DNA of 64,000 nt, taken from positions 1-64,000 of IMG/VR virus record IMGVR_UViG_3300023109_000014. One strand, 5' to 3'. Position 1 is the stretch's first letter. Every line of letters begins with the position of its first letter. Position numbers and translations under genes: made by a program. This document shows positions 1 through 37,377 of the stretch, piece after piece. The DNA is from a virus. Below the pieces are notes generated by a model, which was given only the letters and a program-made list of their open reading frames with translations, searched no databases and was not told the DNA's origin.

Positions 1-219
1 GTAAACATATAACAAATAAATAAGAAGCAAATAAAGAACAAATAAATATGACTTAAATAAATAATAATTCAAATACAATTATCGGCGAAATAAACATATA
101 GTGTAAGTCACTGAAGGGCAACGCTTTGTGCAAATCGCCAGGCGAATTTAAAAAGTCAAGCATAAAGTTTATCAAAATTAAGGGTTGACAAGCAGAGTTG
201 ATTATACTATATTATAGTT

Positions 220-444
220 ATGACAGATTTTATTGCAGACATGAAAGCATCTCTCGAAAGATGGAAAAGCCCAAAAGATTCTCAACCTCGCAAAGGTATG
301 ATGGTATACTTAGACAAAAGCACACCAATTCTCGTGCAGTACGCCAACGAAGATAGTTTCAACCACGCCAAGACGATTACTTCTCGCAAGGGTCAGCAAT
401 CTTGTCTTAGAAATGTAACACCAAACGGAGGAAAACTACAATGA
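220..444 (+). CDS. hypothetical early protein
   Basis: 74 aa ORF; TTGACA(185)-17-TATATT promoter ends 6 nt before ATG. Confidence 0.6.
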   Translation: MTDFIADMKASLERWKSPKDSQPRKGMMVYLDKSTPILVQYANEDSFNHAKTITSRKGQQSCLRNVTPNGGKLQ

Positions 445-632
445 TACTAACACAACCTAATCAAATCGCACAATTCAGAGCAAAAACCTTACTAAGAGGC
501 TTAAAGTTAGAAACTTTAGGAATGACCAAAAGAGGGCAGTCTTGCTATAGCATTATTAAGTCAGAATATGGTCTTAAAGGTAGCAAACAAAAAGTTTACG
601 ATCAATTCAAGAAAATCCTTGACATGGGTTAA
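441..632 (+). CDS. hypothetical phage protein
   Basis: 63 aa ORF with ATGA overlap to previous gene, GGAGG-like SD. Confidence 0.65.
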   Translation: MILTQPNQIAQFRAKTLLRGLKLETLGMTKRGQSCYSIIKSEYGLKGSKQKVYDQFKKILDMG

Positions 633-654
633 AACAAGAACTAGAATGACTACT

Positions 655-1869
655 ATGCAAAAACTTGATAAACTATACAAAATTGACTCCCTCGGTAAAT
701 TAAGAGAGTGGACAATGGTAATCGATGGAAACGCTTTCTACGCTGAGAAAGGTTTAGTCGGAGGTAAAATTCGATGCGATAAACCAACAACTACAACTAG
801 CAAGAACGAAGGCAAGAAAAATGCCACAACTGATATCGAACAAGCATTGGTTGAAGCAAAAGCTAGGTGGATAAAGAAACTTAAAGAGGGTTATGCCAAA
901 ACCCCCAAAGAAGCAGAGACAACTGCATTTTATGAACCCATGCTTGCACAAAAGTTTGAAGATAGGCAAAAAGAAATCAACAAATCTTTTTCAGATAACA
1001 TTGCCGTATGGAGTCAACCAAAACTAGATGGTATTCGTTGCATCATTCGTTCAGAAAATTGGGAAGTTGTTGCTCGAACACGCAAAGGTACAAGAATTGA
1101 TATGATTCCCCATGTATGCAAAGCATTGATGGAATTCTTCAACGAGTACCCCAATGCTATTTTGGATGGAGAGTTGTACAATCACGATTTGAAGCACGAC
1201 TTCAACAAGATTGTATCTCTTGTGCGTAAGCAAGCCCCCAAAAGAGGAAAAAATGACTCAGAAAAAGCGTGGGAAAAAAAGCTTAGAGCATATGCAGATA
1301 GACTTGACGAGGCAGAGAAATTGGTTCAGTATTGGATATATGATATTCCACGATTTAGCGAAGATTGGCACAATGAGTCAACCCCATTTGCTTCAAGAAT
1401 GTTTAACTTTCAAAGTTGCTATATGAGTATGGACGATTCAACACAAGATTACATAAAGTTAGTACATCCTACTTCTTGCAAGAATCACGATGACTTAGAT
1501 TTGTTTTACGGAAGTTATACAGATGAAGGGTACGAAGGGCAAATGGTAAGACTGAATTGTCCTTACGAAAGCAAAAGAAGTAAAAGTTTGCTCAAACGCA
1601 AAGAATTTCAAGATGCAGAATATAAAGTTATGGACATTGAAGAAGGTAATGGAAACAGAGGGGGAACTGCAAAACATTTGGTGTGTTATTGCCCCGAAGT
1701 AGATAAAACTTTTCACTCTAACATAAAAGGGTCATTTGATTATCTTGCAGAGATTTTGCAAAACAAAGATAATTACATTGGCAAACTCGCAACAATCAAA
1801 TTCTTTGAACTAACTCCTGATGGAGTGCCAAGATTCCCATATGCCATTGCATTTAGGGATTACGAATAA
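655..1869 (+). CDS. lig: ATP-dependent DNA ligase (N-terminal WGR-like extension)
   Basis: PMLA, motif I QPKLDGIRC, LDGELY, EGQMVR, LLKRK, C-terminal GVPRFP; start moved from 568 to ATG 655 because TTGACA(619)-17-TAGAAT lies just upstream. Confidence 0.93.
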   Translation: MQKLDKLYKIDSLGKLREWTMVIDGNAFYAEKGLVGGKIRCDKPTTTTSKNEGKKNATTDIEQALVEAKARWIKKLKEGYAKTPKEAETTAFYEPMLAQKFEDRQKEINKSFSDNIAVWSQPKLDGIRCIIRSENWEVVARTRKGTRIDMIPHVCKALMEFFNEYPNAILDGELYNHDLKHDFNKIVSLVRKQAPKRGKNDSEKAWEKKLRAYADRLDEAEKLVQYWIYDIPRFSEDWHNESTPFASRMFNFQSCYMSMDDSTQDYIKLVHPTSCKNHDDLDLFYGSYTDEGYEGQMVRLNCPYESKRSKSLLKRKEFQDAEYKVMDIEEGNGNRGGTAKHLVCYCPEVDKTFHSNIKGSFDYLAEILQNKDNYIGKLATIKFFELTPDGVPRFPYAIAFRDYE

Positions 1870-1890
1870 AAACAACCAACCCATGCTAAA

Positions 1891-2478
1891 ATGATTGATC
1901 CAAAAAAAGTAACTAATTATAAAAGAACTAAATCCGAACTGCAAGAATTCCTTTTGTTCTGTATTTGTGTCGCGGGCAAAAAAAGTACTATTGAAGCACC
2001 TAAGCTTGATAGATTTTTGAATTCACTTAAAAAAAGGTTTAAGTTAGAGGAACCTTTTGCTTTGATTGAATCCGCGAAAGAAGACGGAAGTCTTTGGGAT
2101 GAAATGCAAGAACATAGAATTGCTCCGTATGGACAAAGGTACAATAGTTTTGTGGATGTTATTTCAAAGCTTGATGCGTACAATCTAGAAGAATCTACTC
2201 TTGATCAATTACAATCGATTAGAGGTATTAGTACAAAGACTAGTAGGTTCTTTCTTACTCATTCTGTTGAGAAGTTTGATGATCCCGTTCTAGATACGCA
2301 TATCCTTAAATTTCTAACTGATTTCGGTTACAAAGATGTGCCAAAGTCAACCCCTCAAAACCCAAAGGTGTACGAAAGATTTTCTAAACTATTTCGTAGT
2401 ATCGCTAGATTTGAGGGAAAAAGTGTTGCAGATTTTGACTTAGAGATATGGACAAAATATTCCTACGGAAACGCTTGA
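1891..2478 (+). CDS. HhH-GPD family DNA glycosylase/AP lyase (OGG/EndoIII-like)
   Basis: HhH LQSIRGISTKTSRFFL followed by VLDTHI (catalytic Lys and Asp positions); ends DLEIW. Confidence 0.75.
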   Translation: MIDPKKVTNYKRTKSELQEFLLFCICVAGKKSTIEAPKLDRFLNSLKKRFKLEEPFALIESAKEDGSLWDEMQEHRIAPYGQRYNSFVDVISKLDAYNLEESTLDQLQSIRGISTKTSRFFLTHSVEKFDDPVLDTHILKFLTDFGYKDVPKSTPQNPKVYERFSKLFRSIARFEGKSVADFDLEIWTKYSYGNA

Positions 2479-2510
2479 CAAATTAAGATAACTTATATAA
2501 CATTATTATT

Positions 2511-3305
2511 ATGAAAATTGCTAAACAATCCGTCCTTGGTTTTATGGAAGATGTCTACCCTTTAGGGATAGATACGAGTTATTTTACAAATTGGCTCGAT
2601 TCTATTGATGAAGATAGAATGAAAACATATCAAAGTTATTGGGAGTCTCTTCGACCCAAAACAGAAGCTGACTTTATTAGAGTGTGGTTATTCGCCTTTA
2701 TGAGTATACATACCACATGGGAGAGTAATGTTAGAGGTTACGAAGCATTGAAAGACTTAAAGTGGATGAACGATAAAAAACTCTTACGAGAAAAGCTTGT
2801 AGAATGTAGAGCAGGTTTGTACAACATGAGAACAGATAGGTTGTGGAAATTTCGCAATCAATGGCTAAAGGATTCTAGCCAATTTTACAAAAAAACCAAT
2901 GAAGCTTGGCAAGATTACAGAGATCGTTTGACTGATAATGTGTATGGCATTGGTCTTGCGAAAACATCATTCGTAATTGAGATGGCATATCCAAATGCAG
3001 ATATCTGTTGTCTAGATGTTCATATCTTGCGTTACCTTGGTAGAGAACAAGAAAATGGATCTCTCAACAAGAAGACTTACCGAATCCGAGAAAATTATTG
3101 GATTGACGAATGCAGAAAAAGAAACTATGATCCAGCGATGGTAAGGCATTATTATTGGGATGATATGAAGGGATATAATGATACTCGTTATTGGTCATAT
3201 GTTCTAGAAGGTCAAAAACGATTCGACTTATCTTTATTTACTCAAAAACTTAAACATAAAATTACATCATGGACACCAAAGAAGACAGAATTACAAGCAG
3301 TTTAG
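2511..3305 (+). CDS. second HhH-GPD family DNA glycosylase-like protein
   Basis: HhH VYGIGLAKTSF followed by CLDVHILRYL. Confidence 0.7.
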   Translation: MKIAKQSVLGFMEDVYPLGIDTSYFTNWLDSIDEDRMKTYQSYWESLRPKTEADFIRVWLFAFMSIHTTWESNVRGYEALKDLKWMNDKKLLREKLVECRAGLYNMRTDRLWKFRNQWLKDSSQFYKKTNEAWQDYRDRLTDNVYGIGLAKTSFVIEMAYPNADICCLDVHILRYLGREQENGSLNKKTYRIRENYWIDECRKRNYDPAMVRHYYWDDMKGYNDTRYWSYVLEGQKRFDLSLFTQKLKHKITSWTPKKTELQAV

Positions 3306-3514
3306 ACGAGGAGGCGATAGTGTATACAGAATATGCAGACGCACTAATTGGGGTTGACTCGAAAGGTCGAGCAACCTACAATCTTGAAAAATGTATTAAC
3401 ATACTTATTGAAAGAGATGGTATGGATTACGAAGAGGCGACAGAATATTTTTGGTTCAATACTGAGGGGGCTTACTTTGGAGAACTAACTCCTTTGTTTG
3501 TTGAAGTATACTAA
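3269..3514 (+). CDS. conserved phage hypothetical protein
   Basis: 81 aa, DALIG...DGMDYEEATEYFWFN..GAY pattern recalled from uncultured phages. Confidence 0.6.
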   Translation: MDTKEDRITSSLDEEAIVYTEYADALIGVDSKGRATYNLEKCINILIERDGMDYEEATEYFWFNTEGAYFGELTPLFVEVY

Positions 3515-3777
3515 GTGGATGCGGTTACGCTTTTTATAATCATCTCTGCTTACTTTTTTTACCTCAAACTGAAATGAATATATCTGAAATCGAGTCTTAT
3601 TTTGATGCAATAGATTTTTTCGATAAAGTGTTTGACAAGGGCAAAATGAGCGCGGAAGAAACAGTAAAGAAAATGTATAAACATTGGCCAAATACCACTC
3701 TAAGGTTAACCGCTCAAGGTTTTTTTATGGCAATAGTAGAAAGAAATTAGTTTAGTTCAAATAGCATGGTAGCAATA

Positions 3778-3804
3778 GCCTTAGGGGCGTAAACCCCTGA
3801 GGCT
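3778..3804 (+). terminator. GC hairpin preceding palindrome copy
   Basis: gccttaggggcgtaaacccctgaggc followed by ttagctgttt. Confidence 0.5.
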
Positions 3805-3907
3805 TAGCTGTTTATAAAATCGCCCGCCGATTTCATGCCAACTTTTAAAATATTTTTTTCTCAGAAAAAAGCTTGACTTTATACGATAAAGTGTCAAACT
3901 AACATAT

Positions 3908-4309
3908 ATGATACCACTAGCTAAGAAGTTGCAAACTAGATACAAACTAAACCTTAACAAACCCGTCTTTGTTTATAAAAACCTTCATCGAGATTGTTGG
4001 AGCGTCAAGCAAGATGGCTTAGTCAAGACTCACGCCCAAAACATAACCATGCATAGTTGCACTTTTAAGGTTAATAAAAATGGTAGGGAAAAAGTATTAA
4101 CAGAGAAAAGAAAGAATGTCCATGCGGGAGTACTTGGTTATATAGAAAAATGGATAGATTTAGATTGGGAGAAGAATCATTCTACCGCCCGACCCGTAAC
4201 ATATAATCCATATAAGTATAAGAATTTTGTTGACAAAGACACGGAACAAATGGTAGATTACTCTATTGCAGTTAAACTAGAAGGAAACCATGTATTGGCA
4301 GTATTATGA
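3908..4309 (+). CDS. conserved phage hypothetical protein
   Basis: VYKNLH...WSVK...GREKVL.EKRKNVHA...VTYNPYK pattern. Confidence 0.7.
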   Translation: MIPLAKKLQTRYKLNLNKPVFVYKNLHRDCWSVKQDGLVKTHAQNITMHSCTFKVNKNGREKVLTEKRKNVHAGVLGYIEKWIDLDWEKNHSTARPVTYNPYKYKNFVDKDTEQMVDYSIAVKLEGNHVLAVL

Positions 4310-4616
4310 ATGAAACACAAATGACAAAAACAAAATTGAAAAAAGAAATCTTAGATGAATTTGATTATTTATCACCAAAAGAGTTAATTCAAATTTTCGA
4401 GATGATTTTCGGAAATGGCGAAGTAAAGCTTAACGAAGTAGATTGGAGCAAGTAATTATGACCCTTATTGACCACATTATTCTTTTACCATCAGCTATAG
4501 CAGTTTTTGGTTTTATTTGGCACATGACATATGAGACATTCTTTGCAGAAGATAAAAGCGAAGATCTTTTCAAATTAGTTGTTGACAACAACAACAAACA
4601 AGGTTAGATTATTATT

Positions 4617-4844
4617 ATGAAAAACATTGCAGAAAAACTCGCAGAAATCAAACAATGCTTTTTGGGTAACTTGCGTTACGCTGACCCAAGCGACCCAATC
4701 AATTTGGAACGAGCTAAACAGGTAGGTGTTAAAGGTTTTGCGATTCAGTCGCTTGATGAAGCACTAGCAGATGCCATTGCTGATTGCCAAGATGCTCATT
4801 ATGAGTATTTATTAGAAGAATCTAGAGAAGGAGCTTCTTTATAA
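4617..4844 (+). CDS. hypothetical protein
   Basis: ORF with TTGACA(4582)-17-TAGATT 6 nt before ATG. Confidence 0.65.
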   Translation: MKNIAEKLAEIKQCFLGNLRYADPSDPINLERAKQVGVKGFAIQSLDEALADAIADCQDAHYEYLLEESREGASL

Positions 4845-5251
4845 TGGGTTTAGATCAATACGCTTACGCTCGTCCTCCACGCAAACGCAATGGAGATGAC
4901 GATGAACAGATTGCCGAATGGCGAAAGCATAATCGCTTGCAAGGTTGGATGGAGCAGTTGTGGAACGATAAAGGATGCCCTAATGCAGATGAGAGTGACA
5001 ATTTCAACTGCGTTGCACTTCAAATCACAGAAGAGGACTTAATCAATCTAGAAGATGCAATCGACAACTTTGAACTGCCCGAATCCAATGGTTTCTTTTG
5101 GGGAAGTGATTCTTATTTTTGGACAGATGAAAATGACGAGCCATTTCCCGAAAACGAATATTGGTATAAAGAATCAGATCTTAATTTTGTAAAAGATGCA
5201 AAAAAGATGCTTGACAAAGGTTATCGAATTTATTATAGTAGTTGGTATTGA
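4844..5251 (+). CDS. conserved phage protein (MGLD...WRKHN family)
   Basis: MGLDQY, WRKHNRLQGWM, GFFWG, terminal YYSSW. Confidence 0.75.
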   Translation: MGLDQYAYARPPRKRNGDDDEQIAEWRKHNRLQGWMEQLWNDKGCPNADESDNFNCVALQITEEDLINLEDAIDNFELPESNGFFWGSDSYFWTDENDEPFPENEYWYKESDLNFVKDAKKMLDKGYRIYYSSWY

Positions 5252-5259
5252 TAAAAACT

Positions 5260-5511
5260 ATGAAAACACTAAAAGATATAATTTCCCAAATGGGCTTCGT
5301 AAACTCTCTACAATGCGATGAACTTGCAGAACATTTCCCTCATACTAGAGTTGTTATTCAATGGGGCGGAATGCCTCGTGAGCGAGTGTCTGCTTTTGAG
5401 GTTGCAAAAAGAATTAAGTATGTAGAAGATAATGACATTGATTATGTAAGGCAATGCTTTATATGTTCTAAAGAATATAATATGTTGAAAGAAGTATTTG
5501 GGGTTGCATAA
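5260..5511 (+). CDS. hypothetical protein
   Basis: ORF track 5242..5511; ATG 5260 preferred. Confidence 0.6.
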   Translation: MKTLKDIISQMGFVNSLQCDELAEHFPHTRVVIQWGGMPRERVSAFEVAKRIKYVEDNDIDYVRQCFICSKEYNMLKEVFGVA

Positions 5512-5657
5512 TGAACTTAGAGGAAGCAATAGAACTGATTCAAGAGCAACTTAAGCTCGGCGAAAGAATGGTCATTACTAAAACCACATTTTCTTTAGAG
5601 GAGAATGATGATGATATTGATCTTGACATGATTAACCAAATGTACAATAATTAAGAT

Positions 5658-5906
5658 ATGAAGCAAAAAGAATATATAGATGCAGTATGCGACCACGACC
5701 AATTTGGTATAAAGCCACCTATTTCTGACGAGGTAGAACATGACCAAGATGCAGATATGTGGAGGTTATGGTTTGAATTTAGGAACGAATTTACGGGCGA
5801 AGAGGATATAATTCCTGTTCATTTTGAAACAAAGGAGGATGCAGATGAAGCAATACAAGAAATCAACAATACTAGAATTTTTCAAGAAGAGCGTAAAAGT
5901 GCTTGA
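5658..5906 (+). CDS. acidic hypothetical protein
   Basis: ORF preceded by TTGACA(5623) promoter. Confidence 0.6.
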   Translation: MKQKEYIDAVCDHDQFGIKPPISDEVEHDQDADMWRLWFEFRNEFTGEEDIIPVHFETKEDADEAIQEINNTRIFQEERKSA

Positions 5907-5940
5907 CTTTATACATCGTATATGCGATAATACTAACATA

Positions 5941-6231
5941 ATGAAGAAAATGAAAATGAAGAAACTAACTACTACTATAACTAATTTGCTTGGTCGAGGA
6001 ACTGCCATTGCAAGCTTTGACTACAACGGAACAACTCGAAATGTTGTTATTGGTGCTAACGCATCTTCTCAAGGAGAGAGGGTTTGGGGAGCAATGACCA
6101 ATCGAGCCATTATCGAGCATAAAGGTAACGCTTACTTATCCGCAAGGGTAAACAATGATCCTGCGGGTTATGTTAAAGCTTTTCGACTCGATAAGATCAG
6201 CAATTTTAAGGTAGACGGATCAGTCGTCTAG
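5941..6231 (+). CDS. WYL/Sm-like domain protein
   Basis: SFDYNGTTRNV...VKAFRLDKISNFKV resembles the WYL RxFRLDRI signature; followed by terminator. Confidence 0.55.
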   Translation: MKKMKMKKLTTTITNLLGRGTAIASFDYNGTTRNVVIGANASSQGERVWGAMTNRAIIEHKGNAYLSARVNNDPAGYVKAFRLDKISNFKVDGSVV

Positions 6232-6255
6232 TCTAGCAAGTTAGTAGCGGTGTTA

Positions 6256-6287
6256 AGCGGGGTCTGCGTAGCGGACCCCGTTTTTTT
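6256..6287 (+). terminator. rho-independent terminator
   Basis: gcggggtctgc-gta-gcggaccccg followed by a T-run. Confidence 0.85.
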
Positions 6288-6638
6288 ATACCCACTTAAA
6301 TAGGTTGCCTTAAATAGTATAATGTTTGGCACAAAAATCGCCAGCCGATTTAATGCCACAAATTGCATGGTATATCAAGCATAATGACGGCTAAACACAG
6401 AAAGGCTAAGGGTTTAGGCTTAAAACTTAACTTATGCATCTTATATCATGCATTCCTCATTGTTTCAAAAAAACTTATCAAATTAAGTATTTTTTGCTTG
6501 CGTTTAACATAAAAAAGTTTATTATTGTATATATAGAATGAAAAAGATCAAAGTAAGAAAACCAATTTTATTTACTAAGTCTCGACCACATAAGGTCAAG
6601 AAGGTAATCCATCGCAAACTAAAACATAAAGAACAATT

Positions 6639-6869
6639 ATGAATATTAACGAAAATTATATAGAACAAGATATGCCAAGTGCAGTTCAGATCACAAACCT
6701 TGTCATGGATTCATTATTTGATATTGCTATCAAGCCTATGGAATCGAAACTTAACGAACAGCAAACAGCTTTAGTTGTCGAAGCGGGCATAGCGTTAAAG
6801 ATTATCGCTAAAGAGGCAGACGCTTATAGAAAACTAAAATTACACGGAAACGAATATTATAAAAATTAA
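6639..6869 (+). CDS. hypothetical protein
   Basis: 76 aa ORF in co-oriented run. Confidence 0.55.
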   Translation: MNINENYIEQDMPSAVQITNLVMDSLFDIAIKPMESKLNEQQTALVVEAGIALKIIAKEADAYRKLKLHGNEYYKN

Positions 6870-6937
6870 GTGTTGACAATTGCACGAAAATTTAAGATAA
6901 TTATAAACATAACCTAATCAAACGAAAGAAAAAAATT

Positions 6938-7690
6938 ATGAATAGACTAAACCTAAACATCTGCGGTGGCGAACATACTAAAGTAGGCTTTGATGAAGTC
7001 TGTGCGGTGGAAACACCTCAAGCTACCGATACTTGGAGACCAATTAGCCATAGCTACCTCATTGATAGAGTTCGCTCTCACCTTGACGATAATGGATACG
7101 ATATCGTTGCAGAGAATCATAACCTCGCTCGCTTCGGTCAACGCTATTTTGGGTTATTCCAAGTAAACGATAAGAATAGAGAAGATGAAGATCGGGGTAC
7201 TATTCTTGGTCTTCGTAATGCTCATGACAAATGCTTTCCTGCAGGACTTTGTGCAGGTGACGCCCCTTTCGTGTGTGACAACCTTGTTTTTCACAATGAG
7301 ATTGTGCTTGCTCGTAGGCATACTAAAAACATCATGACCGACCTTCCTCAAGTCATTGCTCGTACCATTGGCAAGTTGTCGGGAATGTGGAATACTCAAG
7401 ACAAGAGGATAGACGCTTATAAAGATTTCGAGGTTACAAACGCTCAAGCTAATGATCTTGTCATTCGTGCTTATCAGTCGGGTGCAATCAGCAAGGCTAA
7501 AATTGCAGATGTTGTTACTCAATGGCAAACGCCCGAACACCCCGAATTTAAGGATCGCAACATGAATTCCTTATACAATGGTTTTACTGCGGTATTGCGT
7601 GGTGGAGTCATGCAATTACCAAAGCGTTCTGATGCTTTGCATTCTGTGCTTGACTCAGAAGTCGGTCTAACTCTCTCAACTAAATCTTAA
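6938..7690 (+). CDS. DUF932/DUF945 family protein
   Basis: TDTWRPISH, LGLRNAHDK, FVCDNL, RRHT, LYNGFT motifs. Confidence 0.8.
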   Translation: MNRLNLNICGGEHTKVGFDEVCAVETPQATDTWRPISHSYLIDRVRSHLDDNGYDIVAENHNLARFGQRYFGLFQVNDKNREDEDRGTILGLRNAHDKCFPAGLCAGDAPFVCDNLVFHNEIVLARRHTKNIMTDLPQVIARTIGKLSGMWNTQDKRIDAYKDFEVTNAQANDLVIRAYQSGAISKAKIADVVTQWQTPEHPEFKDRNMNSLYNGFTAVLRGGVMQLPKRSDALHSVLDSEVGLTLSTKS

Positions 7691-7709
7691 TTCTAAGAAA
7701 GGATATACT

Positions 7710-7952
7710 ATGAAACATCATAATCTCTCAAGCGTACTCAATAACCTTCAAGGACGATTTGTTTCGGTTCTTGTAAAGAATGGGCAGACCCGTCAAGCCT
7801 ATTCAGCAAAGCTAGTTGGGCATTCTCCTTCAACTGTAACTTTTGTAGACACAAACGAAAACAAAGGGCGGAATTACCGCAAGGTAGATCGTAAATCTAT
7901 TATTGGCCTTAAAAGCGGATCAAATAGTTTTCGAAGAACAAAACAGCTTTAG
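7710..7952 (+). CDS. hypothetical basic protein (Sm/SH3-like)
   Basis: 80 aa ORF with AAGGA SD. Confidence 0.6.
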   Translation: MKHHNLSSVLNNLQGRFVSVLVKNGQTRQAYSAKLVGHSPSTVTFVDTNENKGRNYRKVDRKSIIGLKSGSNSFRRTKQL

Positions 7953-7976
7953 GTTAATAGGTAGTAGTCAAATAGT

Positions 7977-7999
7977 CCCAAGGGCGCAAGCCCTTGGGG
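7977..7999 (+). terminator. GC hairpin with GCAA loop preceding palindrome copy
   Basis: cccaagggc-gcaa-gcccttggg followed by gcttaactgttt. Confidence 0.55.
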
Positions 8000-8127
8000 C
8001 TTAACTGTTTGTGAAATCGCCTGCCGATTTCGTGCCAATTTTAAAAAGTTAATTTTAGAAAAAAAAGGGTTGACTTTAAGTTAATTTACTTCATAATTGT
8101 ATACATAACACTAAAGAAAGGATTGCT

Positions 8128-8328
8128 ATGAAAAGAATTGTAAAAATACTAATGGAAAGAGACCAACTAAGCAAAGAAGATGCTATTCGCCAAACGGCCA
8201 CATTTTTTCGTGAAATGTCCGAAGATATTGCAACGGGCGGAGATCCGTCTGAATGGGAAGACAACTTTATGTCCGAGTTCGGATTAGAGCCAGATTTTTT
8301 CGAAGATTTGCTTTTTAGGCTTGCATAA
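8128..8328 (+). CDS. conserved phage hypothetical protein
   Basis: ILMERD...FGLEPD pattern; SD AAGGA. Confidence 0.65.
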   Translation: MKRIVKILMERDQLSKEDAIRQTATFFREMSEDIATGGDPSEWEDNFMSEFGLEPDFFEDLLFRLA

Positions 8329-8355
8329 ACCACTTAACTAGACTATATTCTATAT

Positions 8356-9084
8356 ATGATTACAACAACATTGCTTACTCAAGGAAACTCCAAAATTGTA
8401 AAGGGAGAAAAACTAGGATACATAACAAAGGGAATTCATTTTGCCCCCGCAAATCTTTCAGGGTTTGAAGTTTGCCAATGGCGGTCAAAAGGTTGTACAA
8501 TGTCTTGTCTTAACACGGCAGGTCGTGGGCAAATGAATTCTATTCAAAATTCACGCATTGCAAAGACAAAGTTATTTTTCAATCAACAATTAGATTTCCT
8601 TGCCAAGCTATCGAAAGAAATTTCTAATTCAATTAAGAGTGCAACAAAGAAAGGGATGAAGTCAGCTTTTAGACTCAATCTCACAAGCGACATTGCTTGG
8701 GAATCCGTTTTCTTGAATGAAGATCAGCCAAAATCAATTTTTGACAAGTTTTCATCAACTCAATTTTACGATTACACAAAGTCGTTCAAAAGAATGGCTC
8801 AGTATCTTGGCAAGGATAAAGAATTTCCTAGCAACTATCATTTGACTTTTTCGCTTTCCGAAACTAATCAAAAGCTTGGGGAAATGATTCTTGAAATGGG
8901 CGGTAATGTTGCCGTTGTATTTCGCAATCAATTACCTAAGACATGGAAAGGTTACGAAGTTGTCAATGGCGATGACAATGACCTTCGCTTTCTTGACAAG
9001 AAAGGTGTTGTTGTAGGGCTTATCGAGAAAGGTATGGCAAAGAAAGATTCAACGGGATTTGTAAAAGAAGGGATTGATTCTTAA
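8356..9084 (+). CDS. GP88-like phage protein (Cys-rich, possible Fe-S)
   Basis: C..RS.GC...CL..AGRG, FRLNLTSDI, QFYDYTK, NYHLTFS.SE, GD..DLRFLD. Confidence 0.75.
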   Translation: MITTTLLTQGNSKIVKGEKLGYITKGIHFAPANLSGFEVCQWRSKGCTMSCLNTAGRGQMNSIQNSRIAKTKLFFNQQLDFLAKLSKEISNSIKSATKKGMKSAFRLNLTSDIAWESVFLNEDQPKSIFDKFSSTQFYDYTKSFKRMAQYLGKDKEFPSNYHLTFSLSETNQKLGEMILEMGGNVAVVFRNQLPKTWKGYEVVNGDDNDLRFLDKKGVVVGLIEKGMAKKDSTGFVKEGIDS

Positions 9085-9128
9085 ATTAGTTATTGACAAA
9101 AGGCTTTTATTTATTCATTATTAGCATT

Positions 9129-9332
9129 ATGACAGATTACAACTTATTATTCGAATCAGGCGACACTTATTATGACTCAGCTTATGCAATGGACATTTCA
9201 CAGGATAGAGCGTTACAAGAATTGGCTAACCATGGAGTTACTACTAATGAGGGCATTGTAGAGTTTTATGAAGACATGGGAGACAAAGAGTCTTATCCTG
9301 CTCAAAAAGTGCTTGAATGGCTTGGCTATTGA
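9129..9332 (+). CDS. hypothetical protein
   Basis: ATG 9129 follows TTGACA(9093)-17-CATTAT; ends VLEWLGY. Confidence 0.6.
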   Translation: MTDYNLLFESGDTYYDSAYAMDISQDRALQELANHGVTTNEGIVEFYEDMGDKESYPAQKVLEWLGY

Positions 9333-9484
9333 ACCCTAAATAGGTCAAATAGAAATAGTTAACTTTTTAGGCGTATTGTAAATCGCCAGGCGATTTTTTT
9401 TGATTTAAATTCGATTTTATTTGACAAACTATCTTTTTTAGCTTAGTTTATATATATTAACGCTAATACTAACACATAATCAAA

Positions 9485-9718
9485 ATGACAGATACTACAT
9501 ATAACGGATGGACAAATCGCACAACATGGCTTATTAATGTATGGTACAACCCTACTACCGCAGACCTTGATTGGATCAGGGAGGACTTAGAAGATAAGGT
9601 TAACAAGCTAGCTGATTCAGAGCAGGTATCTGATAAAGTGCTTGCAGATATGATAAACCTTGAAGAGGTAAACTGGTCCGAATTGGAAGAAAGCTTAGAA
9701 GACCCCGAGGACGAGTAG
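9485..9718 (+). CDS. conserved phage protein (YNGWTN family)
   Basis: YNGWTNRTTWLINVW...EVNW.E. Confidence 0.7.
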   Translation: MTDTTYNGWTNRTTWLINVWYNPTTADLDWIREDLEDKVNKLADSEQVSDKVLADMINLEEVNWSELEESLEDPEDE

Positions 9719-9920
9719 GGGTCAAATCGCCAGCCGATTCCGTGCCAATTACTTAGCAGGAATCAATCTATATCGAAGCCGTTTTGCTCCCGTGTTTTGC
9801 ATTAGCCGTACTTTAAGCAAGGCATCTGCTTGCTTCTTATACATAGGGATAGATTCTGTTATCCATCCTGTTTTTTTTGTTAATGGAATTGATTGGAGAA
9901 TTAACATATTAGCCTTTTGT

Positions 9921-10196
9921 TTAGGATTCTATTTCGTGCCAAAATGAACTTACCGAGTTCATGTCGACTAGGTTTTCGTCAGAGTCAAAATCTTCCTCTT
10001 CTTCTTCTTTATGCTCAAGAGAATCAAATTCTTCTTGAATGTCTTCTTTCTTTGCTTCGATTAAGCCATGCTCTACAACTAGCTTTTCTGCTAATTGCTC
10101 TGCCTTCAATTCGTCTAAAAGATTTTTGAATTTAGAGGTAACTTTGTTACTTTCTGCGTTATCTACTGCTTGTTTTATTAGGTCAATGTTATTCAT
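9921..10196 (-). CDS. acidic hypothetical protein
   Basis: start ATG 10196 after TTGACT-17-TAGATT on minus strand; E/D-rich C-terminus. Confidence 0.6.
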   Translation of the reverse strand: MNNIDLIKQAVDNAESNKVTSKFKNLLDELKAEQLAEKLVVEHGLIEAKKEDIQEEFDSLEHKEEEEEDFDSDENLVDMNSVSSFWHEIES

Positions 10197-10708
10197 ATTT
10201 ATATACAATCTAATGGTTAAAGGTGTTAAAGTCAAGCCCAAAAAGGATGTTTTTTTACAGATGACATAGGTACTGCAACCCTTTTGTTTGTGTTATATAT
10301 GCGAGCTAAAACAAAAGTTTCTGCTCCATCTTGTTGAATTCCCTCTACATGAAGGATGCGTTTTTGGTAATCTATTACAACATCGTTTTTGTTAATCATA
10401 CCTTAATCTAATCAATTTTTTTGTTAATTGCAAGCTAAATCGTCTTTTTTTTAGCATTTTTATTTTATTTTTTTTGGCACGAAAATCGCGGGGCGATTTG
10501 CCCTTATTCGCTTAGCTCTGTTTGGGCAATTCTGTCAAGATCGGCTTGTGCGGCTATGACTTGCATCTGTGCTGATGCAGAGCCGTTATTTGCCGCCTCG
10601 ATATTCTCATCGATGATTTTAGATAGTCTTCTTTTTTCTTGTAGTAGTGTGTTTGTCATATGTATATAAGTTAAACGATTTTTTAGATTAAGTCAAATTT
10701 ATTTTCAA

Positions 10709-10936
10709 TTACATTTCAAATTGATCATGGTAGCCGTAATCAAAGTCTTCGTAATGATCCCTACATTCTGGCTCTTCATGATTTCTATGCACTTCTGACA
10801 TAGGAGAATGCTTGCGAGAGTTATTTGCCTTATTGAAGGCATCAACTTCATCATTCATCTTCTGCATGAGTTCTTCTTGTTTTTTGAGAATCTCGGCGTT
10901 AACAGGTCGGTCAATGTGTGAGTATTTACTAATCAT
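10709..10936 (-). CDS. hypothetical protein
   Basis: ORF track 10709..11023; ATG 10936 follows a minus-strand promoter. Confidence 0.55.
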   Translation of the reverse strand: MISKYSHIDRPVNAEILKKQEELMQKMNDEVDAFNKANNSRKHSPMSEVHRNHEEPECRDHYEDFDYGYHDQFEM

Positions 10937-11023
10937 AACTAAGTATAATCTAAGGGATAAAGAAGTTAATTGCAAGCAAAAACGTATTTTTCTTAAAAAA
11001 ATCGGCAGCCGATTTTGTGCCAA

Positions 11024-11257
11024 TCAGCTTTCCTCTAGCAAGCCATCCCTCAAGAGATTGAGTTCTTGCAAGACTTTATTATATTCTTTTCTAGCTTGTT
11101 GTATCGCATGAAGTGCATCAAGAACGGCAGTGCCTTGAGTAATTGAAGCTGACTTTGATTCAGCAAGAAATTTAAGATTACCCTCGGCTTTAGACATTGA
11201 TAAAGCACATTGCAATGTAGGGTATTTTTTAAGAAGATCTTTTGTTGAGTTATTCAT
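11024..11257 (-). CDS. hypothetical protein
   Basis: 77 aa ORF co-oriented with neighbours. Confidence 0.6.
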   Translation of the reverse strand: MNNSTKDLLKKYPTLQCALSMSKAEGNLKFLAESKSASITQGTAVLDALHAIQQARKEYNKVLQELNLLRDGLLEES

Positions 11258-11260
11258 GTA

Positions 11261-11734
11261 TTATTTCGTTTGGTTTTCAAGTTCCCACAATTCGGGATGC
11301 GATGCGTAGTGAAAAAAGAATCTGCCTTGATTTTGTTTGGCAGTTTTGATTTCAAATTCAGATGGCTCAACACCATAGGTTAAGCGAAAGTTTGCCTCAG
11401 AAGCAGAAATTCCAAGTTCTTTTTTGAGTTCAACTACTTGTCCCATGCGTGGGCGAGTTAATTTATTTTTGAACACTTTGACTTGAGTTACCTTTGGGGC
11501 GAAACGGTCTTCGTTAATTTTATATCGCTTAGGGGCATAAAAATTCCAAAGAATGGATACTTCTTTTGGTGTTGCTTGTTTAGTTTTCACAAGTGTTAAA
11601 GCGACATTTTCAAGCTGTTTTCGTGCGTTAAAACCTTTTTTCCATACGGAATGGTCATCCGAGAAGTCGTAAAACCAATCGTGATATTCTAGGTCGTTAG
11701 AGAATTCTGTTTTCAAGTCTTTTATCATAATCAT
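11261..11734 (-). CDS. hypothetical protein (HDWFY..SDD..VW..G motif)
   Basis: N-terminal HDWFYDFSDDHSVWKKG motif recalled from phage proteins. Confidence 0.65.
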   Translation of the reverse strand: MIMIKDLKTEFSNDLEYHDWFYDFSDDHSVWKKGFNARKQLENVALTLVKTKQATPKEVSILWNFYAPKRYKINEDRFAPKVTQVKVFKNKLTRPRMGQVVELKKELGISASEANFRLTYGVEPSEFEIKTAKQNQGRFFFHYASHPELWELENQTK

Positions 11735-11801
11735 TTATCTTTCTATATATATAAGGTAGTCTAGTTTTTAACTAAAGTCAAATTTATTTGCAATTATTTT
11801 A

Positions 11802-12077
11802 CTATTTTTTTTCTCTTATTTCTTGGATGTAGTATTGAGCATTATCACCATCTTTGCGTTGAATGCTTGTTTGGAATTGCAACTTTGGTTGAAGTGTGCG
11901 AATCATGCGAGCAACTTTGCGTCTGACTTCATGCTTATCTTCAGCTTGTATAGTGATTGCGTGGTGCGTCTTGTCAATGTCAATGTATGACTTAGTATTA
12001 CTATTCCATAAGGAAATTGCTTCACCATCGAGGGAAGAGACATGAACGCTTGCAATGAATGTTTTATTCTTAATCAT
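11802..12077 (-). CDS. hypothetical protein
   Basis: 91 aa ORF with upstream TTGACT promoter. Confidence 0.6.
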   Translation of the reverse strand: MIKNKTFIASVHVSSLDGEAISLWNSNTKSYIDIDKTHHAITIQAEDKHEVRRKVARMIRTLQPKLQFQTSIQRKDGDNAQYYIQEIREKK

Positions 12078-12337
12078 ATATACAATATGACATACAAATT
12101 AACAAAAGTCAAATTTTTTTTCAATTACCTTTCAACTATGTTTTTGCACAATCCTACTGAATCGCCTGCCGATTTCATGCCAATTTATTTTTAAAAAAAG
12201 CTCTTGACATTTAAAACATTTCTCTTTAGTGTGTTGTTATGGACATTATTATTATACTTATCATATTTGCGATTATGACTTGCCGAGAAGTGGTAAATTG
12301 TAGTTGACATTATTATTAAAACTATCATACTTGTATT

Positions 12338-12970
12338 ATGAACCTTGCGAAAAACATAGACCACAATTTACTTAACAATTCCCTAAACAAAATTGCTTCT
12401 GATGGCTCAACCCATCATGGATATAGCTTTGAAGATTTTGTAACTCTTGCTTTAGGATTTACCGAAGCTGACGGCACACCCTATCGAGACAGAAAACAAG
12501 GAGGCACAAAAAATCATCGGCAGAGCTTTGACATCCCTCAAGAAGTTGCCGAACGCAACCCAATTTTACCCGAAGCATACAAGCTCCCATGGTCAATCAA
12601 AGCAGTAAAAATTGGAAGTCCTATTGGTCTAGGAACTGCACGACTTCAGTATGATGCGTGGTCAGCTTCGGGGCTTGTGCAGGTATCGGGCTTTTACTCC
12701 AAGAAAGGTGGAGAGAAAAGGCTTGAGCATTTTTCGATTGAAGTTGTTCCTCCTGATGTTGAATATTGGGGAAACATAACAAAAGAATTAGTTTATCGGC
12801 TTGATCCCAAAGGCGTTTCTAGAGAATGTTATTCTAGAAAAGAATTCGAGGCAGAAACAGGTCGAGTTAACAAAAGCAGAACAGGTGTTATCGGTTTGCG
12901 AGCATTAGGCAGACAGAGAAACTTGCAAGCGTATATGAATTTTTCTGACTATAACACTCTTGTTGCTTGA
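12338..12970 (+). CDS. putative restriction-endonuclease-fold (PD-(D/E)xK-like) nuclease
   Basis: HGYSFE...SFDIP...WSIK arrangement (E, D, S-x-K). Confidence 0.5.
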   Translation: MNLAKNIDHNLLNNSLNKIASDGSTHHGYSFEDFVTLALGFTEADGTPYRDRKQGGTKNHRQSFDIPQEVAERNPILPEAYKLPWSIKAVKIGSPIGLGTARLQYDAWSASGLVQVSGFYSKKGGEKRLEHFSIEVVPPDVEYWGNITKELVYRLDPKGVSRECYSRKEFEAETGRVNKSRTGVIGLRALGRQRNLQAYMNFSDYNTLVA

Positions 12971-13001
12971 CATTTTGACAAAAAACATTACTATAAAACT
13001 T

Positions 13002-13187
13002 ATGATTAAAACAAAGATAGATAACCTCACAGAAATGCTTAAGAAGTTAAGTGCCCAAAAAAATGCAGAATTAAGGGTTGGCAACATTATTTCTGCTAAC
13101 GCTTTAGAGTCAGTGCAAATGGATATCGAAGCAAAGATTCTTGAGCTTTCAGCAAAAACAGAAAAAGGTTTAGTCGTTAAGGCTTGA
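13002..13187 (+). CDS. small coiled-coil protein
   Basis: ATG 13002 follows TTGACA promoter. Confidence 0.55.
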   Translation: MIKTKIDNLTEMLKKLSAQKNAELRVGNIISANALESVQMDIEAKILELSAKTEKGLVVKA

Positions 13188-13322
13188 CTTTCTTCTTAAA
13201 CTCTTATAGATTATTATTATGCGAAAATTATTTGATATGTTTACTATTGCGTTCATTCCATTTATTATTGGTGCAGTCCTACTTTTTGGATGTGCCTTAA
13301 TTGCTAACCTCATAAACCCATC

Positions 13323-13514
13323 ATGATTAAGATAAAAACACACCCTAATTTCGGTAATTGGTTTAACATATTTGCATTCAACAAATTAGTTGAACAAGTT
13401 CATACAAAATCCCAAGCACTAAAAAAGGCTAAAGAACTCGCTCGAAACAACGAGCAATCTTTTTATTTGCATGACGGAGTAAGAAAGGCGGTAGTTGTAA
13501 ATGAACCAAGCTGA
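13323..13514 (+). CDS. small protein, paralog of 13824..14006
   Basis: MIKIKTHPNFGNWFNI...ALKKAK. Confidence 0.65.
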   Translation: MIKIKTHPNFGNWFNIFAFNKLVEQVHTKSQALKKAKELARNNEQSFYLHDGVRKAVVVNEPS

Positions 13515-13695
13515 ACTTGAATCAAAAAATCCTTTTGTAATTACCGCTATAGAGAGAAGAACGATTATTCTCAGAAAAGATAGCCCGTACTACAAGCCAA
13601 AGCTGAATGACAGGGTTTTATCAATTGACTGCGTACTTGCAAATTCAGATCGACTGATAGAAATCCAGAAAGGAATCTTTGAGTTGACAGACTAA
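13501..13695 (+). CDS. hypothetical protein
   Basis: 64 aa ORF overlapping previous stop. Confidence 0.5.
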   Translation: MNQAELESKNPFVITAIERRTIILRKDSPYYKPKLNDRVLSIDCVLANSDRLIEIQKGIFELTD

Positions 13696-13823
13696 AGTTG
13701 GCACGAAAATCGCGGGGCGATTCTACATAAACCATTGGTTATTAGTAGTTTAAGTATGTAAAAAAATCAATTATTTTTTCATTTGGGCTTGACTTTTGGA
13801 GCTAGCTATACTATATTCTATAT

Positions 13824-14006
13824 ATGATTAAGATTGAAACACACCCAAACTTTTCCGAATGGCTTAACATTTCATTATGGGGAAAGTTGATTGATAACGC
13901 TAAGTCTGAAGTTCAGGCATTAAAAATTGCTAAAACTATTCAGAAAGAACGCCAAGCTCAAGGCGAAAGAATAATGATTATTAACCATGTAGAGGAAAAC
14001 AACTAA
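13824..14006 (+). CDS. small protein, paralog of 13323..13514
   Basis: MIKIETHPNFSEWLNI...ALKIAK. Confidence 0.65.
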   Translation: MIKIETHPNFSEWLNISLWGKLIDNAKSEVQALKIAKTIQKERQAQGERIMIINHVEENN

Positions 14007-14461: not shown

Positions 14462-14848
14462 TTAAGTAATCTCTATGGTTTTTTTGCGTTGTTCGCTTTT
14501 TTCTTCTTTTAATTGAATCTCTAGAATTCCATTTTTAATGGATGCGTTAGATTTTGCGAGGTCAACTTTTATTTTCGTGGCAAACTCTCGATTTATTTTA
14601 GATGTCATGGTTTCGCTGATTTTCTTGTTGCCAGTAATTCTGACTGATCTACCATCAATATTAATTTTAAGGTCCTCCTTGGTCATCCCAGGGGCCGCCA
14701 AACGAATGATACAACCATCTTTAGTCTCTTCAATATCTGTGCCAGCATTAAAACTGCAGACTCTATCTTTTAAAGAGTTTTCGTTACTATTAAAAAAATC
14801 AGACAACCATGAGGTGTCGAAACCAGAATTTATAAGTGAATATTTCAT
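14462..14848 (-). CDS. Hsp20/alpha-crystallin small heat shock protein
   Basis: DIEET...AAPGMTKEDLKI...ITG...ASIKNGILEIQL. Confidence 0.9.
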   Translation of the reverse strand: MKYSLINSGFDTSWLSDFFNSNENSLKDRVCSFNAGTDIEETKDGCIIRLAAPGMTKEDLKINIDGRSVRITGNKKISETMTSKINREFATKIKVDLAKSNASIKNGILEIQLKEEKSEQRKKTIEIT

Positions 14849-14859
14849 ACAATATATAT

Positions 14860-14876
14860 TGCATAAGTCATGCCAA
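14860..14876 (-). promoter_or_regulatory. sigma54 (-24/-12) promoter of hsp20
   Basis: minus strand TTGGCATGACTTATGCA = GG-N10-GC, about 12 nt before the ATG. Confidence 0.65.
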
Positions 14877-14909
14877 CTAAAAACGCGGTAAAATCGCGGT
14901 AAAATCTAG

Positions 14910-15197
14910 TTAGTTGCGACTTTCTGACCCAAACGGAGTTTTCTGTTGGCATGCGCATGAGTCATCGTGGCGCAAGTTATATTTTTGGCATTTATTTTTA
15001 TATCGTTCCCACATATAGTAGGGCCAAAAGAAGTGGAAAGCTAAATCGTCTTGGTTTTTTAAGGCTGCAGCTAGCTCAAGGGCGTAAACCTTCTCCCAAT
15101 TCTTTTCTTCTTCAGAAAATTTAGTATCTTCTGGTTTTAATTTAGGTTCTTTTAGCGAACAAGTACAAAAAAATAATACAATTAATAAAAACCTCAT
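14910..15197 (-). CDS. putative lipoprotein/secreted protein
   Basis: hydrophobic N-terminus ending FFCTC; GTGTA-N9-ATG upstream. Confidence 0.55.
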   Translation of the reverse strand: MRFLLIVLFFCTCSLKEPKLKPEDTKFSEEEKNWEKVYALELAAALKNQDDLAFHFFWPYYMWERYKNKCQKYNLRHDDSCACQQKTPFGSESRN

Positions 15198-15296: not shown

Positions 15297-15803
15297 TCAT
15301 TTAACAATCCTTTCTTTAATAATTTGTTGGGCATATTCTTTACCATGCCAGCCTGAAAGTTCTACTCGGTTCCCAGAAGAAGATAAATCTTTATAATGTG
15401 CAAAAAAGTTTGTACAGATTTCAATAAAATGTTTATCTATACAAGACAGGTCTGAATATTTATCTTTGTAGAAATTCGGTACAGCAATTATTTTATAATC
15501 TTTTTCTCCATTGTCGTCCATGTCCAACACTCCCAAAACCTTAGCTTCAACGATTGTTCCCCTTTGAATAGGTTCTTTGTTAATAATTAATATATCTATT
15601 GGGTCTCCGTCTTCGCACATGGTCTGAGGGATGAATCCATAGTTAGCAGGATAAACCATTGAAGAGATTAAAGACCTGTCGAATATGAAACCCTGGAGGT
15701 CGGGGTCGTATTCATATTTATTTCGGTGACCTTCTTGTATTTCAATTATTGAATTAACTACAGATGGGCAGTGTTTATTTTGCGGGACATTATACAAATT
15801 CAT
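15297..15803 (-). CDS. ppa: family I inorganic pyrophosphatase
   Basis: NKYEYD, YPANYGFIPQT, DGDPIDIL, D.GEKDYKIIAVP, FFAHYK. Confidence 0.95.
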   Translation of the reverse strand: MNLYNVPQNKHCPSVVNSIIEIQEGHRNKYEYDPDLQGFIFDRSLISSMVYPANYGFIPQTMCEDGDPIDILIINKEPIQRGTIVEAKVLGVLDMDDNGEKDYKIIAVPNFYKDKYSDLSCIDKHFIEICTNFFAHYKDLSSSGNRVELSGWHGKEYAQQIIKERIVK

Positions 15804-15887
15804 TTTCTTAGCAAGTTCAACTATAATTACACGAGAATATTTTTTTTTGATTGACTTTTATTGAGAAAAACAGTAATATTACTACCA

Positions 15888-16715
15888 ATGAATATGTTTC
15901 AAGAAGAACAATCGAAAGAAGATAAAATAAAGTTAGAAGCAAAAGCTAAATATGGAGTTCATTTCAATTTTTTCGAACAAGCTGGCAAAGAGTTGAATTG
16001 GTTGGAGGAAAATAATCCAACATTCGCAAAAAAAAATAAAGTTTGTATCATTGGTAATGGTTTATCTTTGTTAAGCAAAAAAGCTGGAGAGGCTATAGAT
16101 AAGTTTGACTACGTTTGTAGGGTTGATGATTTTGTAACTCCTGTTGAAAAAACAAAGTTTATCTTAGGTAGTAAGACTACTCATGTTGTGCACGGCGCAA
16201 GCCCTCTAGCTTCTGCGTGGTCAAAAGGCAGGGTTCTTCCTCGCGTAAGCAACATCTTGTTAATTCCTGCGGATCAATTCACCAGTATGCAGGCATGGCT
16301 TTATTATTTCTGCGGTAAGAATGGTTCGCTATTTGATTCTACCCCATTAATAAAATTACTTCTTTTAGAAAGATTAGGTATAGAGAATATAGAACAACAA
16401 GATATATGGAAAAATATAAATAGCCATGATCTATATGATACAAATCAAAACTGGAATTTTGTGTCATTAGCTTTGTGTAGAGAAATCGCGAATAAAACAG
16501 TTGAATACCCATCGGTGGGTATTTCAACAATATTCTATTTTAGATATATTTTAAATTGGGACGTATCTGTTATTGGTTTTGATTTTGAAGACAAGCATAT
16601 TTGCGAAGAGCTGACCAAAGACATTAAGGCGCCCATGCATGAAAAAATCGACTACACAGAAGAATCTGTAGTATTTGACGAATGGGTAGGTAACAAAATC
16701 ATTAAACTTCTTTGA
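15888..16715 (+). CDS. glycosyltransferase family 29 (sialyltransferase-like)
   Basis: L-like motif VCIIGNG.SL...G.AIDKFD.V.R...GSKTT; S-like PSVG...IGFDF. Confidence 0.7.
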   Translation: MNMFQEEQSKEDKIKLEAKAKYGVHFNFFEQAGKELNWLEENNPTFAKKNKVCIIGNGLSLLSKKAGEAIDKFDYVCRVDDFVTPVEKTKFILGSKTTHVVHGASPLASAWSKGRVLPRVSNILLIPADQFTSMQAWLYYFCGKNGSLFDSTPLIKLLLLERLGIENIEQQDIWKNINSHDLYDTNQNWNFVSLALCREIANKTVEYPSVGISTIFYFRYILNWDVSVIGFDFEDKHICEELTKDIKAPMHEKIDYTEESVVFDEWVGNKIIKLL

Positions 16716-34531: not shown

Positions 34532-34551
34532 TTTTTAGTGTATTAATAGTT

Positions 34552-35325: not shown

Positions 35326-35382
35326 AAATAAATTTAAATTTTTAAATAACTAGATATAATAGTCTAGTTAAAACTATTTATT

Positions 35383-36252: not shown

Positions 36253-36265
36253 CATGCCATGAAGC

Positions 36266-37342: not shown

Positions 37343-37377
37343 ATAAATAGATTAGTTTAGTGTAAATACTATTTGAA

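Follow-up and report, generated by a model that had tools for sequence, protein, structure and literature searches.

Palindromes linked to sigma54-type -24/-12 elements at the operon borders of a marine phage accessory region

The DNA analysed here comprises the first 64 kb (the window) of the 82,461-bp IMG/VR record IMGVR_UViG_3300023109_000014, which comes from an uncultured marine phage and has a completeness estimate of 60 %. The window encodes a terminase and a giant tape-measure protein with cargo modules, and its first 16 kb carry small accessory genes for an ATP-dependent ligase, two Ogg-like glycosylases, L5 gp82-like, DUF932 and GP88 proteins, a small heat-shock protein (hsp20) and a pyrophosphatase. 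The borders between the operons of this accessory region hold ten copies of a 17-bp palindrome, AAATCG-N5-CGATTT, eight of which are fused to a flanking TGGCA so that a sigma54-type -24/-12 element is formed. The DNA is present at least in part in sixteen studies, and at least half of its words are found in five runs; near-identity searches of the deposited phage collection gave no near match to the window.

The operons (window 185-13830) start with TTGAC(A/T)-N17-TAnnnT-N6-ATG, a sigma70-type promoter placed for leaderless messages. As read from the open reading frame (ORF) map, the distance from the palindrome centre to the -35 box is 36 to 117 nt. At 3817, 8014 and 13707, as well as in related phages, the order is hairpin, palindrome and then TTGAC(A/T)-N17-TAnnnT-N6-ATG. 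The ORF map and a terminator/promoter scan thus bear out the claim, made earlier from the letters of the window, that the operons downstream of the palindromes have sigma70-type promoters of their own. A second promoter type, TTTTT(C/G)CTTGCAAT, is present at 10999 and in relatives.

The palindrome and its copies

The copies were located at 132, 3817, 6335, 8014, 9380, 9724, 10483, 10999, 12159 and 13707, exactly where the sequence-only reading had placed them; six are exact and four contain 1 mismatch. With up to 2 mismatches allowed, the window holds 12 matches versus 5.2 expected, a number reached in 1 of 100 shuffles. A scan of the whole record with at most 1 mismatch gave 11 sites, compared to 1 when the pattern was reversed as a control. 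One of the eleven, at 23050, falls inside the terminase ORF around an AT centre and bears no relation to the others; this match aside, the previous statement that no copy occurs after 14 kb holds for the whole record. Each of the ten copies is situated between two operons, in agreement with the intergenic location reported before.

Copy 1 (132-148, upstream of the ligase operon) reads AAATCG-N5-CGAATT and has no TGGCA flank; copies devoid of TGGCA occupy the same position in relatives L010 (1499), L013 (1944) and L011 (18031). Copy 2 (3817-3841, palindrome 3817-3833) carries a sigma54-like element, TTGGCATG..GC, at 3826-3841 on the minus strand, pointing back at a strong hairpin at about 3778-3803. 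Copy 3 (6326-6359, palindrome 6335-6351) has elements on both strands, at 6326-6341 (+) and 6344-6359 (-). Copy 4 (8014-8038), with a minus-strand element at 8023-8038, is preceded by a terminator-like hairpin (7988-8002) and followed by a TTGACT promoter at 8070. Copy 5 (9380-9396) lacks TGGCA and is the sole copy with a terminator-like T-run on the plus strand. The element of copy 6 (9724-9748) is at 9733-9748 (-), and the ORF map agrees with the earlier observation that this copy lies between convergent gene ends. Copy 7 (10474-10499, palindrome 10483-10499), with the element at 10474-10489 (+), forms the left edge of a cassette missing in the related contig G004. Copies 8 (10999-11023) and 9 (12159-12183) both have minus-strand elements, at 11008-11023 and 12168-12183, respectively, the latter in a divergent promoter region left of a gene designated F7. 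Copy 10 (13698-13723, palindrome 13707-13723) has its element at 13698-13713 (+); beyond it come a hairpin and, at 13789, a TTGACT promoter.

Conservation in related phages, the lack of which would have counted against the motif, was found: the same element is present in six related IMG/VR contigs, five recovered by a first motif scan and the sixth by a second one. The contigs G002, G003, G004 and G005 carry 12, 10, 7 and 12 copies, respectively, clustered in one region of 8-18 kb, and the fragments G001 and G011 carry 2 and 3 copies. A scan of IMG/VR with the palindrome alone was too unspecific, the matches listed being mostly single chance matches, and it was kept as a negative control. Four of the seven related contigs (G000, G001, G004 and G011) start or end about 0.1-1.4 kb from a palindrome copy, which suggests either that this repeat-rich region interrupts assemblies or that it is a terminal repeat.

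Five sources (the window and L010-L013) were used for the detailed analysis and gave 51 palindromes in total. The twelve arm positions are near-invariant among them, and the arm variants are single and uncompensated, as in a sequence-specific protein site. Since the arms are fixed in sequence, the half-site centres are 11 bp apart and 14 of the 51 copies occur without any TGGCA, the palindrome is most likely the binding site of a dimeric protein. The phage operator suggested previously therefore remains a good candidate, as predicted from these features.

The -24/-12 element and the hsp20 promoter

TTGGCAYR flanks one or both sides of 37 of the 51 palindromes, giving 41 half-sites. The eight palindromes of the window that have TGGCA keep it in the GG-N10-GC register, and copy 3 has it on both strands as reported, which makes nine elements in the window. 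The statement that TGGCA is exactly placed required a correction, as two registers exist: TGGCA stands 2 nt from the palindrome if the centre begins with GC and 3 nt if it begins with C. In the 2-nt register GC occupies palindrome positions 7-8 in 25 of 25 elements, and in the 3-nt register, to which copy 7 belongs, C occupies position 7 in 16 of 16. All 41 elements keep the GG-N10-GC spacing, the palindrome being displaced by one base against GG and GC between the two registers. Ten of these elements (all among the 25 in the 2-nt register) were picked by the search pattern, nine came from the window and 22 were unselected. The covariation of the register with the palindrome centre indicates that two separate constraints overlap.

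When the 41 elements were aligned on GG, the flank read TTGGCAYRAAA, with T at -27 in 33, T at -26 in 40, GGCA in 41, Y at -21, R at -20, A at -19 in 36, and G at -13 and C at -12 in 41. The sigma54 consensus is printed as TGGcacg-N4-5-tGCtat (PMC2831329), and the -24 block of the palindrome-linked elements, TTGGCAYRA, equals it over 9 positions. The -12 block is GGC or CGC, with G/C and no T at -14, rather than TGC. G/C occupies each of the positions -11 to -7 in 30 to 41 of the 41 elements, which is predicted to make the palindrome-linked sites hard to melt. The palindrome spans about -19 to -3 of the element. Among 82 palindrome-like matches listed from unrelated IMG/VR contigs, used as a control, 3 have any GGCA flank and none has TTGGCAY. 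Two other descriptions of the element were rejected: TTGGCA as a sigma70 -35 box, because no conserved -10 follows, and a fixed order of TGGCA, palindrome and hairpin, the downstream side being more structured in just 19 of 33 one-sided sites.

In the whole record GC stands in register for 12 of 58 TGGCAY sequences, compared to about 2.3 expected by chance. Nine of these sites are at palindromes and two in coding sequence. The twelfth, TTGGCATGACTTATGCA, is located 12 nt 5' of the ATG of hsp20 (14462-14848, minus strand; small heat-shock protein, PF00011) and was not mentioned in the earlier reading. At 14860-14876 on the minus strand the sequence is TTGGCATG-N4-ATGCA, a canonical sigma54-type promoter unaccompanied by a palindrome; no conserved palindrome was seen upstream of it. 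TGGCAY-N5-nTGCA, followed after 12-13 nt (counted from the -12 C) by the hsp20 ATG, was found in seven of seven genomes (the window, G001-G005 and G011), with both the -24 block and the TGC(A) of the -12 block of the extended consensus. The spacers vary (ACTTA, GCTTA, ACTAA, AATAC, GTATA and GAAGC), and the upstream DNA has otherwise diverged, so that only the promoter blocks and the ATG are invariant in front of genes whose Hsp20 products are 37-67 % identical. A search for the canonical box gave 1-3 boxes per record and none for the reversed control pattern in all five records searched.

The hsp20 site has the footprint to be expected of a working -24/-12 promoter. Its preservation is taken to mean that the host supplies sigma54 and that this clade of phages uses -24/-12 promoters, and it makes it more likely that the TTGGCAYR..GC elements at the palindromes dock this enzyme as well. 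In E. coli another small heat-shock gene, ibpB, is sigma54-dependent (PMC2831329). The -24/-12 likeness noted at first is therefore supported both by the register covariation and by the promoter in front of hsp20.

Immediately upstream of the hsp20 promoter (about 14880-14912, minus strand) is a tandem 11-bp repeat, GATTTTACCGC x2, that contains the half-site CGATTT; G001 and G004 retain it only in part, and G002, G003 and G005 lack it. Further canonical TGGCAY-N5-TTGCW boxes stand outside the accessory region at G005:32240-32255 (-), G003:17164-17179 (+) and L017 1539 (+), and one at L010 8065 was set aside as it is inside a gene. Metagenome-assembled genomes (MAGs) of distant relatives gave no hsp20 match with the query used here.

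Orientation of the array and exchange of cassettes

Relative to the gene that follows, the elements show no fixed orientation: a script, whose count is affected by spurious small ORFs, gave 15 sense and 26 antisense, and counting by hand gave 18 and 23, respectively. This agrees with the view expressed before that they are not simple promoters. Their direction follows position instead: 33 of the 41 elements, and 8 of 8 in L010, point away from gene F7 (12338-12970, plus strand; 210 aa), a polarity not seen in the first reading. Four of the eight exceptions are second arms of two-sided copies. The naive p value for this polarity, 1e-4, is too small given the lack of independence among copies, but each source clearly shows the direction switching at F7. 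All five sources contain F7, and five MAGs with distant relatives gave no match to its profile. The protein gave no family or PDB-sequence match, and its ESM-Atlas neighbours include clusters with restriction-enzyme families in 11-19 % of their members, a lead only. As a clade-specific protein F7 is one candidate for the palindrome-binding protein.

The gene families between palindromes stay together, and their order and direction change among relatives; for example, F23-F6-F24 is leftward in the window and rightward in L010. The gene-content breakpoints coincide with the motif, the possibility of which had been raised before. The left flank of copy 8014 matches L013 by its copy 10093, the right flank matches L013 by its copy 13749, and at copy 10999 the homology partner likewise switches inside the copy. 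The cassette missing in G004 begins at copy 10483. The ends of high-scoring segment pairs fell within 25 bp of a palindrome centre in 15 of 100 cases versus about 3 expected. Two truncated copies in G004 are both broken after CGA of the right arm, with the -24/-12 part retained. Weak hints came from contigs of relatives in RNA runs: in two runs from a single study homology stops at 11007, the centre of copy 10999, and a further hint was at 12155. The RNA runs consist of short contigs only, which in four runs covered 25, 15, 12 and 19 of 30 bins at low depth, the uncovered parts carrying no meaning. With the same 25-40 bp present at each border, the element probably also acts as a crossover point for exchange, inversion and loss of operon cassettes.

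Distant relatives (L020, L021 and L022), reached through the DUF932 gene, show the same border architecture around other core palindromes. L022 (8625-19683) has 12 copies of GACCCC-(GAA or TTC)-GGGGTC about 1 kb apart, the loop being only GAA or its complement, and the core of L020 is GCCGC-N5-GCGGC. The border repeats of these relatives are about 80 bp long, with a 27-nt palindrome, GTAAGTCGTTGA-N3-TCAACGACTTAC, on both sides of the G+C-rich core. Variants of the 27-mer contain G-T pairs and by eye resemble IHF sites. There is no TGGCA at these cores, which assigns the TGGCA element to the AAATCG subgroup.

Possible roles of the composite element

From the anatomy and conservation of the element, its register covariation, the hsp20 footprint, the polarity and the breakpoints we infer which proteins bind and what binding would do. 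The preferred interpretation, to which a probability of about 0.5 is given, is that the elements are docking sites for the host sigma54 polymerase, overlapped by an operator and arranged as a polar array at cassette joints. Two signals would thus overlap at the operon borders of the accessory region, the 17-bp palindromic operator and, in about three quarters of the copies, the -24/-12 element at which sigma54 RNA polymerase of the host would dock, with access controlled by the palindrome-binding protein. Since there is no T at -14, positions -11 to -7 are G/C-rich, and orientation follows position and not gene direction, the palindrome-linked sites are probably poised or gated rather than ordinary promoters of genes. 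They could serve as antisense or secondary promoters whose firing requires an activator, or the bound polymerase could act as a directional barrier. The -24/-12 likeness, the rejection of simple promoters, the operator and the recombination joints are the parts of the earlier interpretation that stood.

A more specific form of the sigma54 docking interpretation is doubtful. It supposes a polar array of 7-12 poised sigma54 docking sites gated by a palindrome-binding protein, possibly a restriction-enzyme-like F7, that works as a directional switch or barrier. The palindrome centre would then coincide with the start of sigma54 melting (-12/-11), and the array could shut off the operons of the left arm by antisense transcription and drive those of the right arm in the sense direction. 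Alternatively, the bound polymerase could form a Ter-like block, or the sites could soak up scarce host sigma54.

Several observations weigh against docking of sigma54 polymerase. The non-TGC -12 block means that the palindrome-linked sites may bind sigma54 poorly, and the 14 copies without TGGCA indicate that the palindrome works without the -24 block. The counts of 41/41 and 33/41 overstate the number of independent events, as the copies are kin by descent and duplication. Searches of 5 phage records, 39-76 % complete, gave no sigma54 DNA-binding domain (PF04552), and the only match there to an AAA+ activator (PF00158/Sigma54_activat) was a ClpB-like chaperone of 818 aa in G005, rejected as a Clp-type protein; an activator could possibly come from the host. 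The hsp20 promoter is the sole source of the inferred rpoN in the host, and TerL relatives were found in MAGs of five phyla, which points to mis-binning; the palindrome is absent from the MAGs holding them. No DNA-binding domain was found in Pfam/PHROG scans of 29 proteins encoded at 1-16 kb, nor, apart from a sigma factor, in five further proteins (15.9-20.7 kb). The distant relatives build the same borders around cores that have no TGGCA.

The alternative that survives best, although unlikely on balance, is that phage or host DNA-binding proteins other than sigma54 recognise the whole 25-34 bp element (TTGGCAYR and palindrome), for instance a stoperator-like repressor that would silence or insulate the early operons, and that the -24/-12 likeness of the element is coincidental. 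The full conservation of the palindrome in the 14 TGGCA-less copies, a third CGATT half-site just 5' of GGCA at seven sites, the non-canonical -12 block and the failure to find an activator or sigma54 gene in the phage records all fit such proteins. The one-base shift of TGGCA with centre GC (41/41), the match to the -24 consensus over 9 positions and the canonical hsp20 promoter are left unexplained. Like the stoperators of Cluster A mycobacteriophages, bound by the L5 repressor, the element is present as many copies of one site in short intergenic spaces. According to PMC9283540, stoperators number more than twenty copies genome-wide and have been proposed to halt both initiation and elongation. 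As described there, they are asymmetric 13-mers bound by a monomer and oriented with transcription, whereas the element has a palindromic core, a flank that does not follow transcription and no known repressor.

A polar process at the DNA level centred on F7, with F7 as a restriction-enzyme-like nuclease or nickase acting on the palindrome or with the sites as Chi- or Ter-like directional signals for recombination or replication, and with regulation as a secondary matter, is somewhat less probable still. It would account for the 33 of 41 elements pointing away from F7 (8/8 in L010), for the co-occurrence of F7 with the palindrome, for the two truncated copies of G004 that break at the same base and the homology switches inside copies, and the restriction-enzyme families near F7 in the ESM-Atlas would suit it as a lead. 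F7 itself, however, matches no family or PDB sequence, its pattern of presence and absence is shared by about a dozen other gene families, and breakpoints in a shared 25-bp repeat are expected from ordinary homologous recombination; the hsp20 promoter is again unexplained.

It is very improbable that the palindromes are RNA hairpins, either intrinsic terminators or processing sites between operons. In favour of hairpins are their location at operon ends, T-runs after 9380 (+) and 10999 (-) and the A/T tracts that flank the stem. The folds of the ten copies are weak, however, at -2.9 to -7.1 kcal/mol with a z-score weaker than -2 in five of them, and copies 3817, 6335 and 8014 each have stronger hairpin structure immediately upstream. 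The terminator scan called only 9380 (+) as a hairpin of its own with a T-tail, and at 10999, in spite of the minus-strand T-run, it called a different, longer stem. The palindrome is too weak for an intrinsic terminator. Moreover, its arms are invariant and have no compensated changes, the centre is often not self-complementary and the strand is not fixed relative to transcription.

Least probable of all is a promoter for a phage-encoded polymerase or for the phage sigma70-family factor (18922-19665), since, although that factor is conserved in all five relatives and the virion RNA polymerase of P23-45 (PMC10770324) is called to mind by the giant tape measure and its cargo modules, the 13-14 nt from TTGGCA to CGATTT are too short for a sigma70-family -35/-10 pair, no conserved -10 is present, and the sigma gene lies beside structural genes, where the element is absent. 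A virion RNA polymerase was rejected as none of the long ORFs in the 82-kb record contains a D.DGD motif. A search for a T7-like polymerase gave no match, but neither did the control genomes, so it shows nothing.

Docking of host sigma54 polymerase has a precedent in phage YuA, the development of which needs host sigma54 (PMC5053324; bioRxiv 10.1101/2023.10.13.562163). Phage use of sigma54 has been called rare, with YuA as the example (PMC5053324), and YuA was the only precedent to emerge when a limited literature collection was searched for phage sigma54 promoter arrays. As in bacterial sigma54 (RpoN) promoters, GG and GC are exactly 10 nt apart and the -24 block, TTGGCAYRA, equals the consensus; in front of hsp20 the site conforms fully. 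Those linked to palindromes differ in having G/C at -14, a G/C-rich stretch from -11 to -7 and an overlapping palindrome, in the lack of a visible activator site or gene, in their number (7-12 per genome) and in being oriented by position.

The PeSLs (promoter-early stem-loops) of T4-like phages are composite terminator/promoter motifs that lie between small variable genes and are points of exchange (PMC4122927), and the borders described here resemble them in these respects. This phage is not T4-like, as judged by its tape measure protein, and its borders carry in addition a sequence-specific palindrome and a -24/-12 element, neither of which is a sigma70 promoter or a terminator. PeSLs are not known to have a polarity, unlike the array found here. 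In E. coli 18 % of sigma54 promoters are located in coding regions or between convergent genes (PMC2831329); like such silent, intragenic or convergent enterobacterial sites, the palindrome-linked elements need not stand in front of genes. The enterobacterial silent sites are scattered singly in the chromosome, whereas those described here form a conserved, polar, palindrome-fused phage array.

A common seawater phage lineage thus keeps one canonical sigma54-type promoter together with an array of non-canonical ones fused to an operator-like palindrome. If sigma54 polymerase docks at the array, phages can tie the expression or shut-off of accessory genes to a signalling route of the host, silent sigma54 sites can have an architectural role and sites of regulation can at the same time be recombination joints. 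A clean, testable prediction for binding comes from the register covariation.

Some features of neighbouring genes may be added. The sigma70-family factor encoded at 18922-19665 on the plus strand (region 2, 25 bits) is just upstream of the structural genes, contains a Cys-rich insert and a helix-turn-helix-like C-terminal end, and is probably a late-gene sigma. In G005 (34500-40000; L023) the 818-aa ClpB/ClpC-like chaperone with two AAA+ domains adjoins a DNA polymerase III alpha fragment. At 568-3305 and 15297-16715 the window encodes functions in repair and metabolism: after the ATP-dependent DNA ligase come two paralogous Ogg-HhH glycosylases, and then an inorganic pyrophosphatase and a glycosyltransferase of family 29 (sialyltransferase-like). 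Two small proteins (7710-7952 and 5824-6231, plus strand), both conserved and very basic, flank the DUF932 gene; they match no family, share an N-L-x-G-R and beta-rich pattern and look Sm/Hfq-like by eye. They are 70-80 % identical across relatives, with 94-95 % for the DUF932 gene between them.

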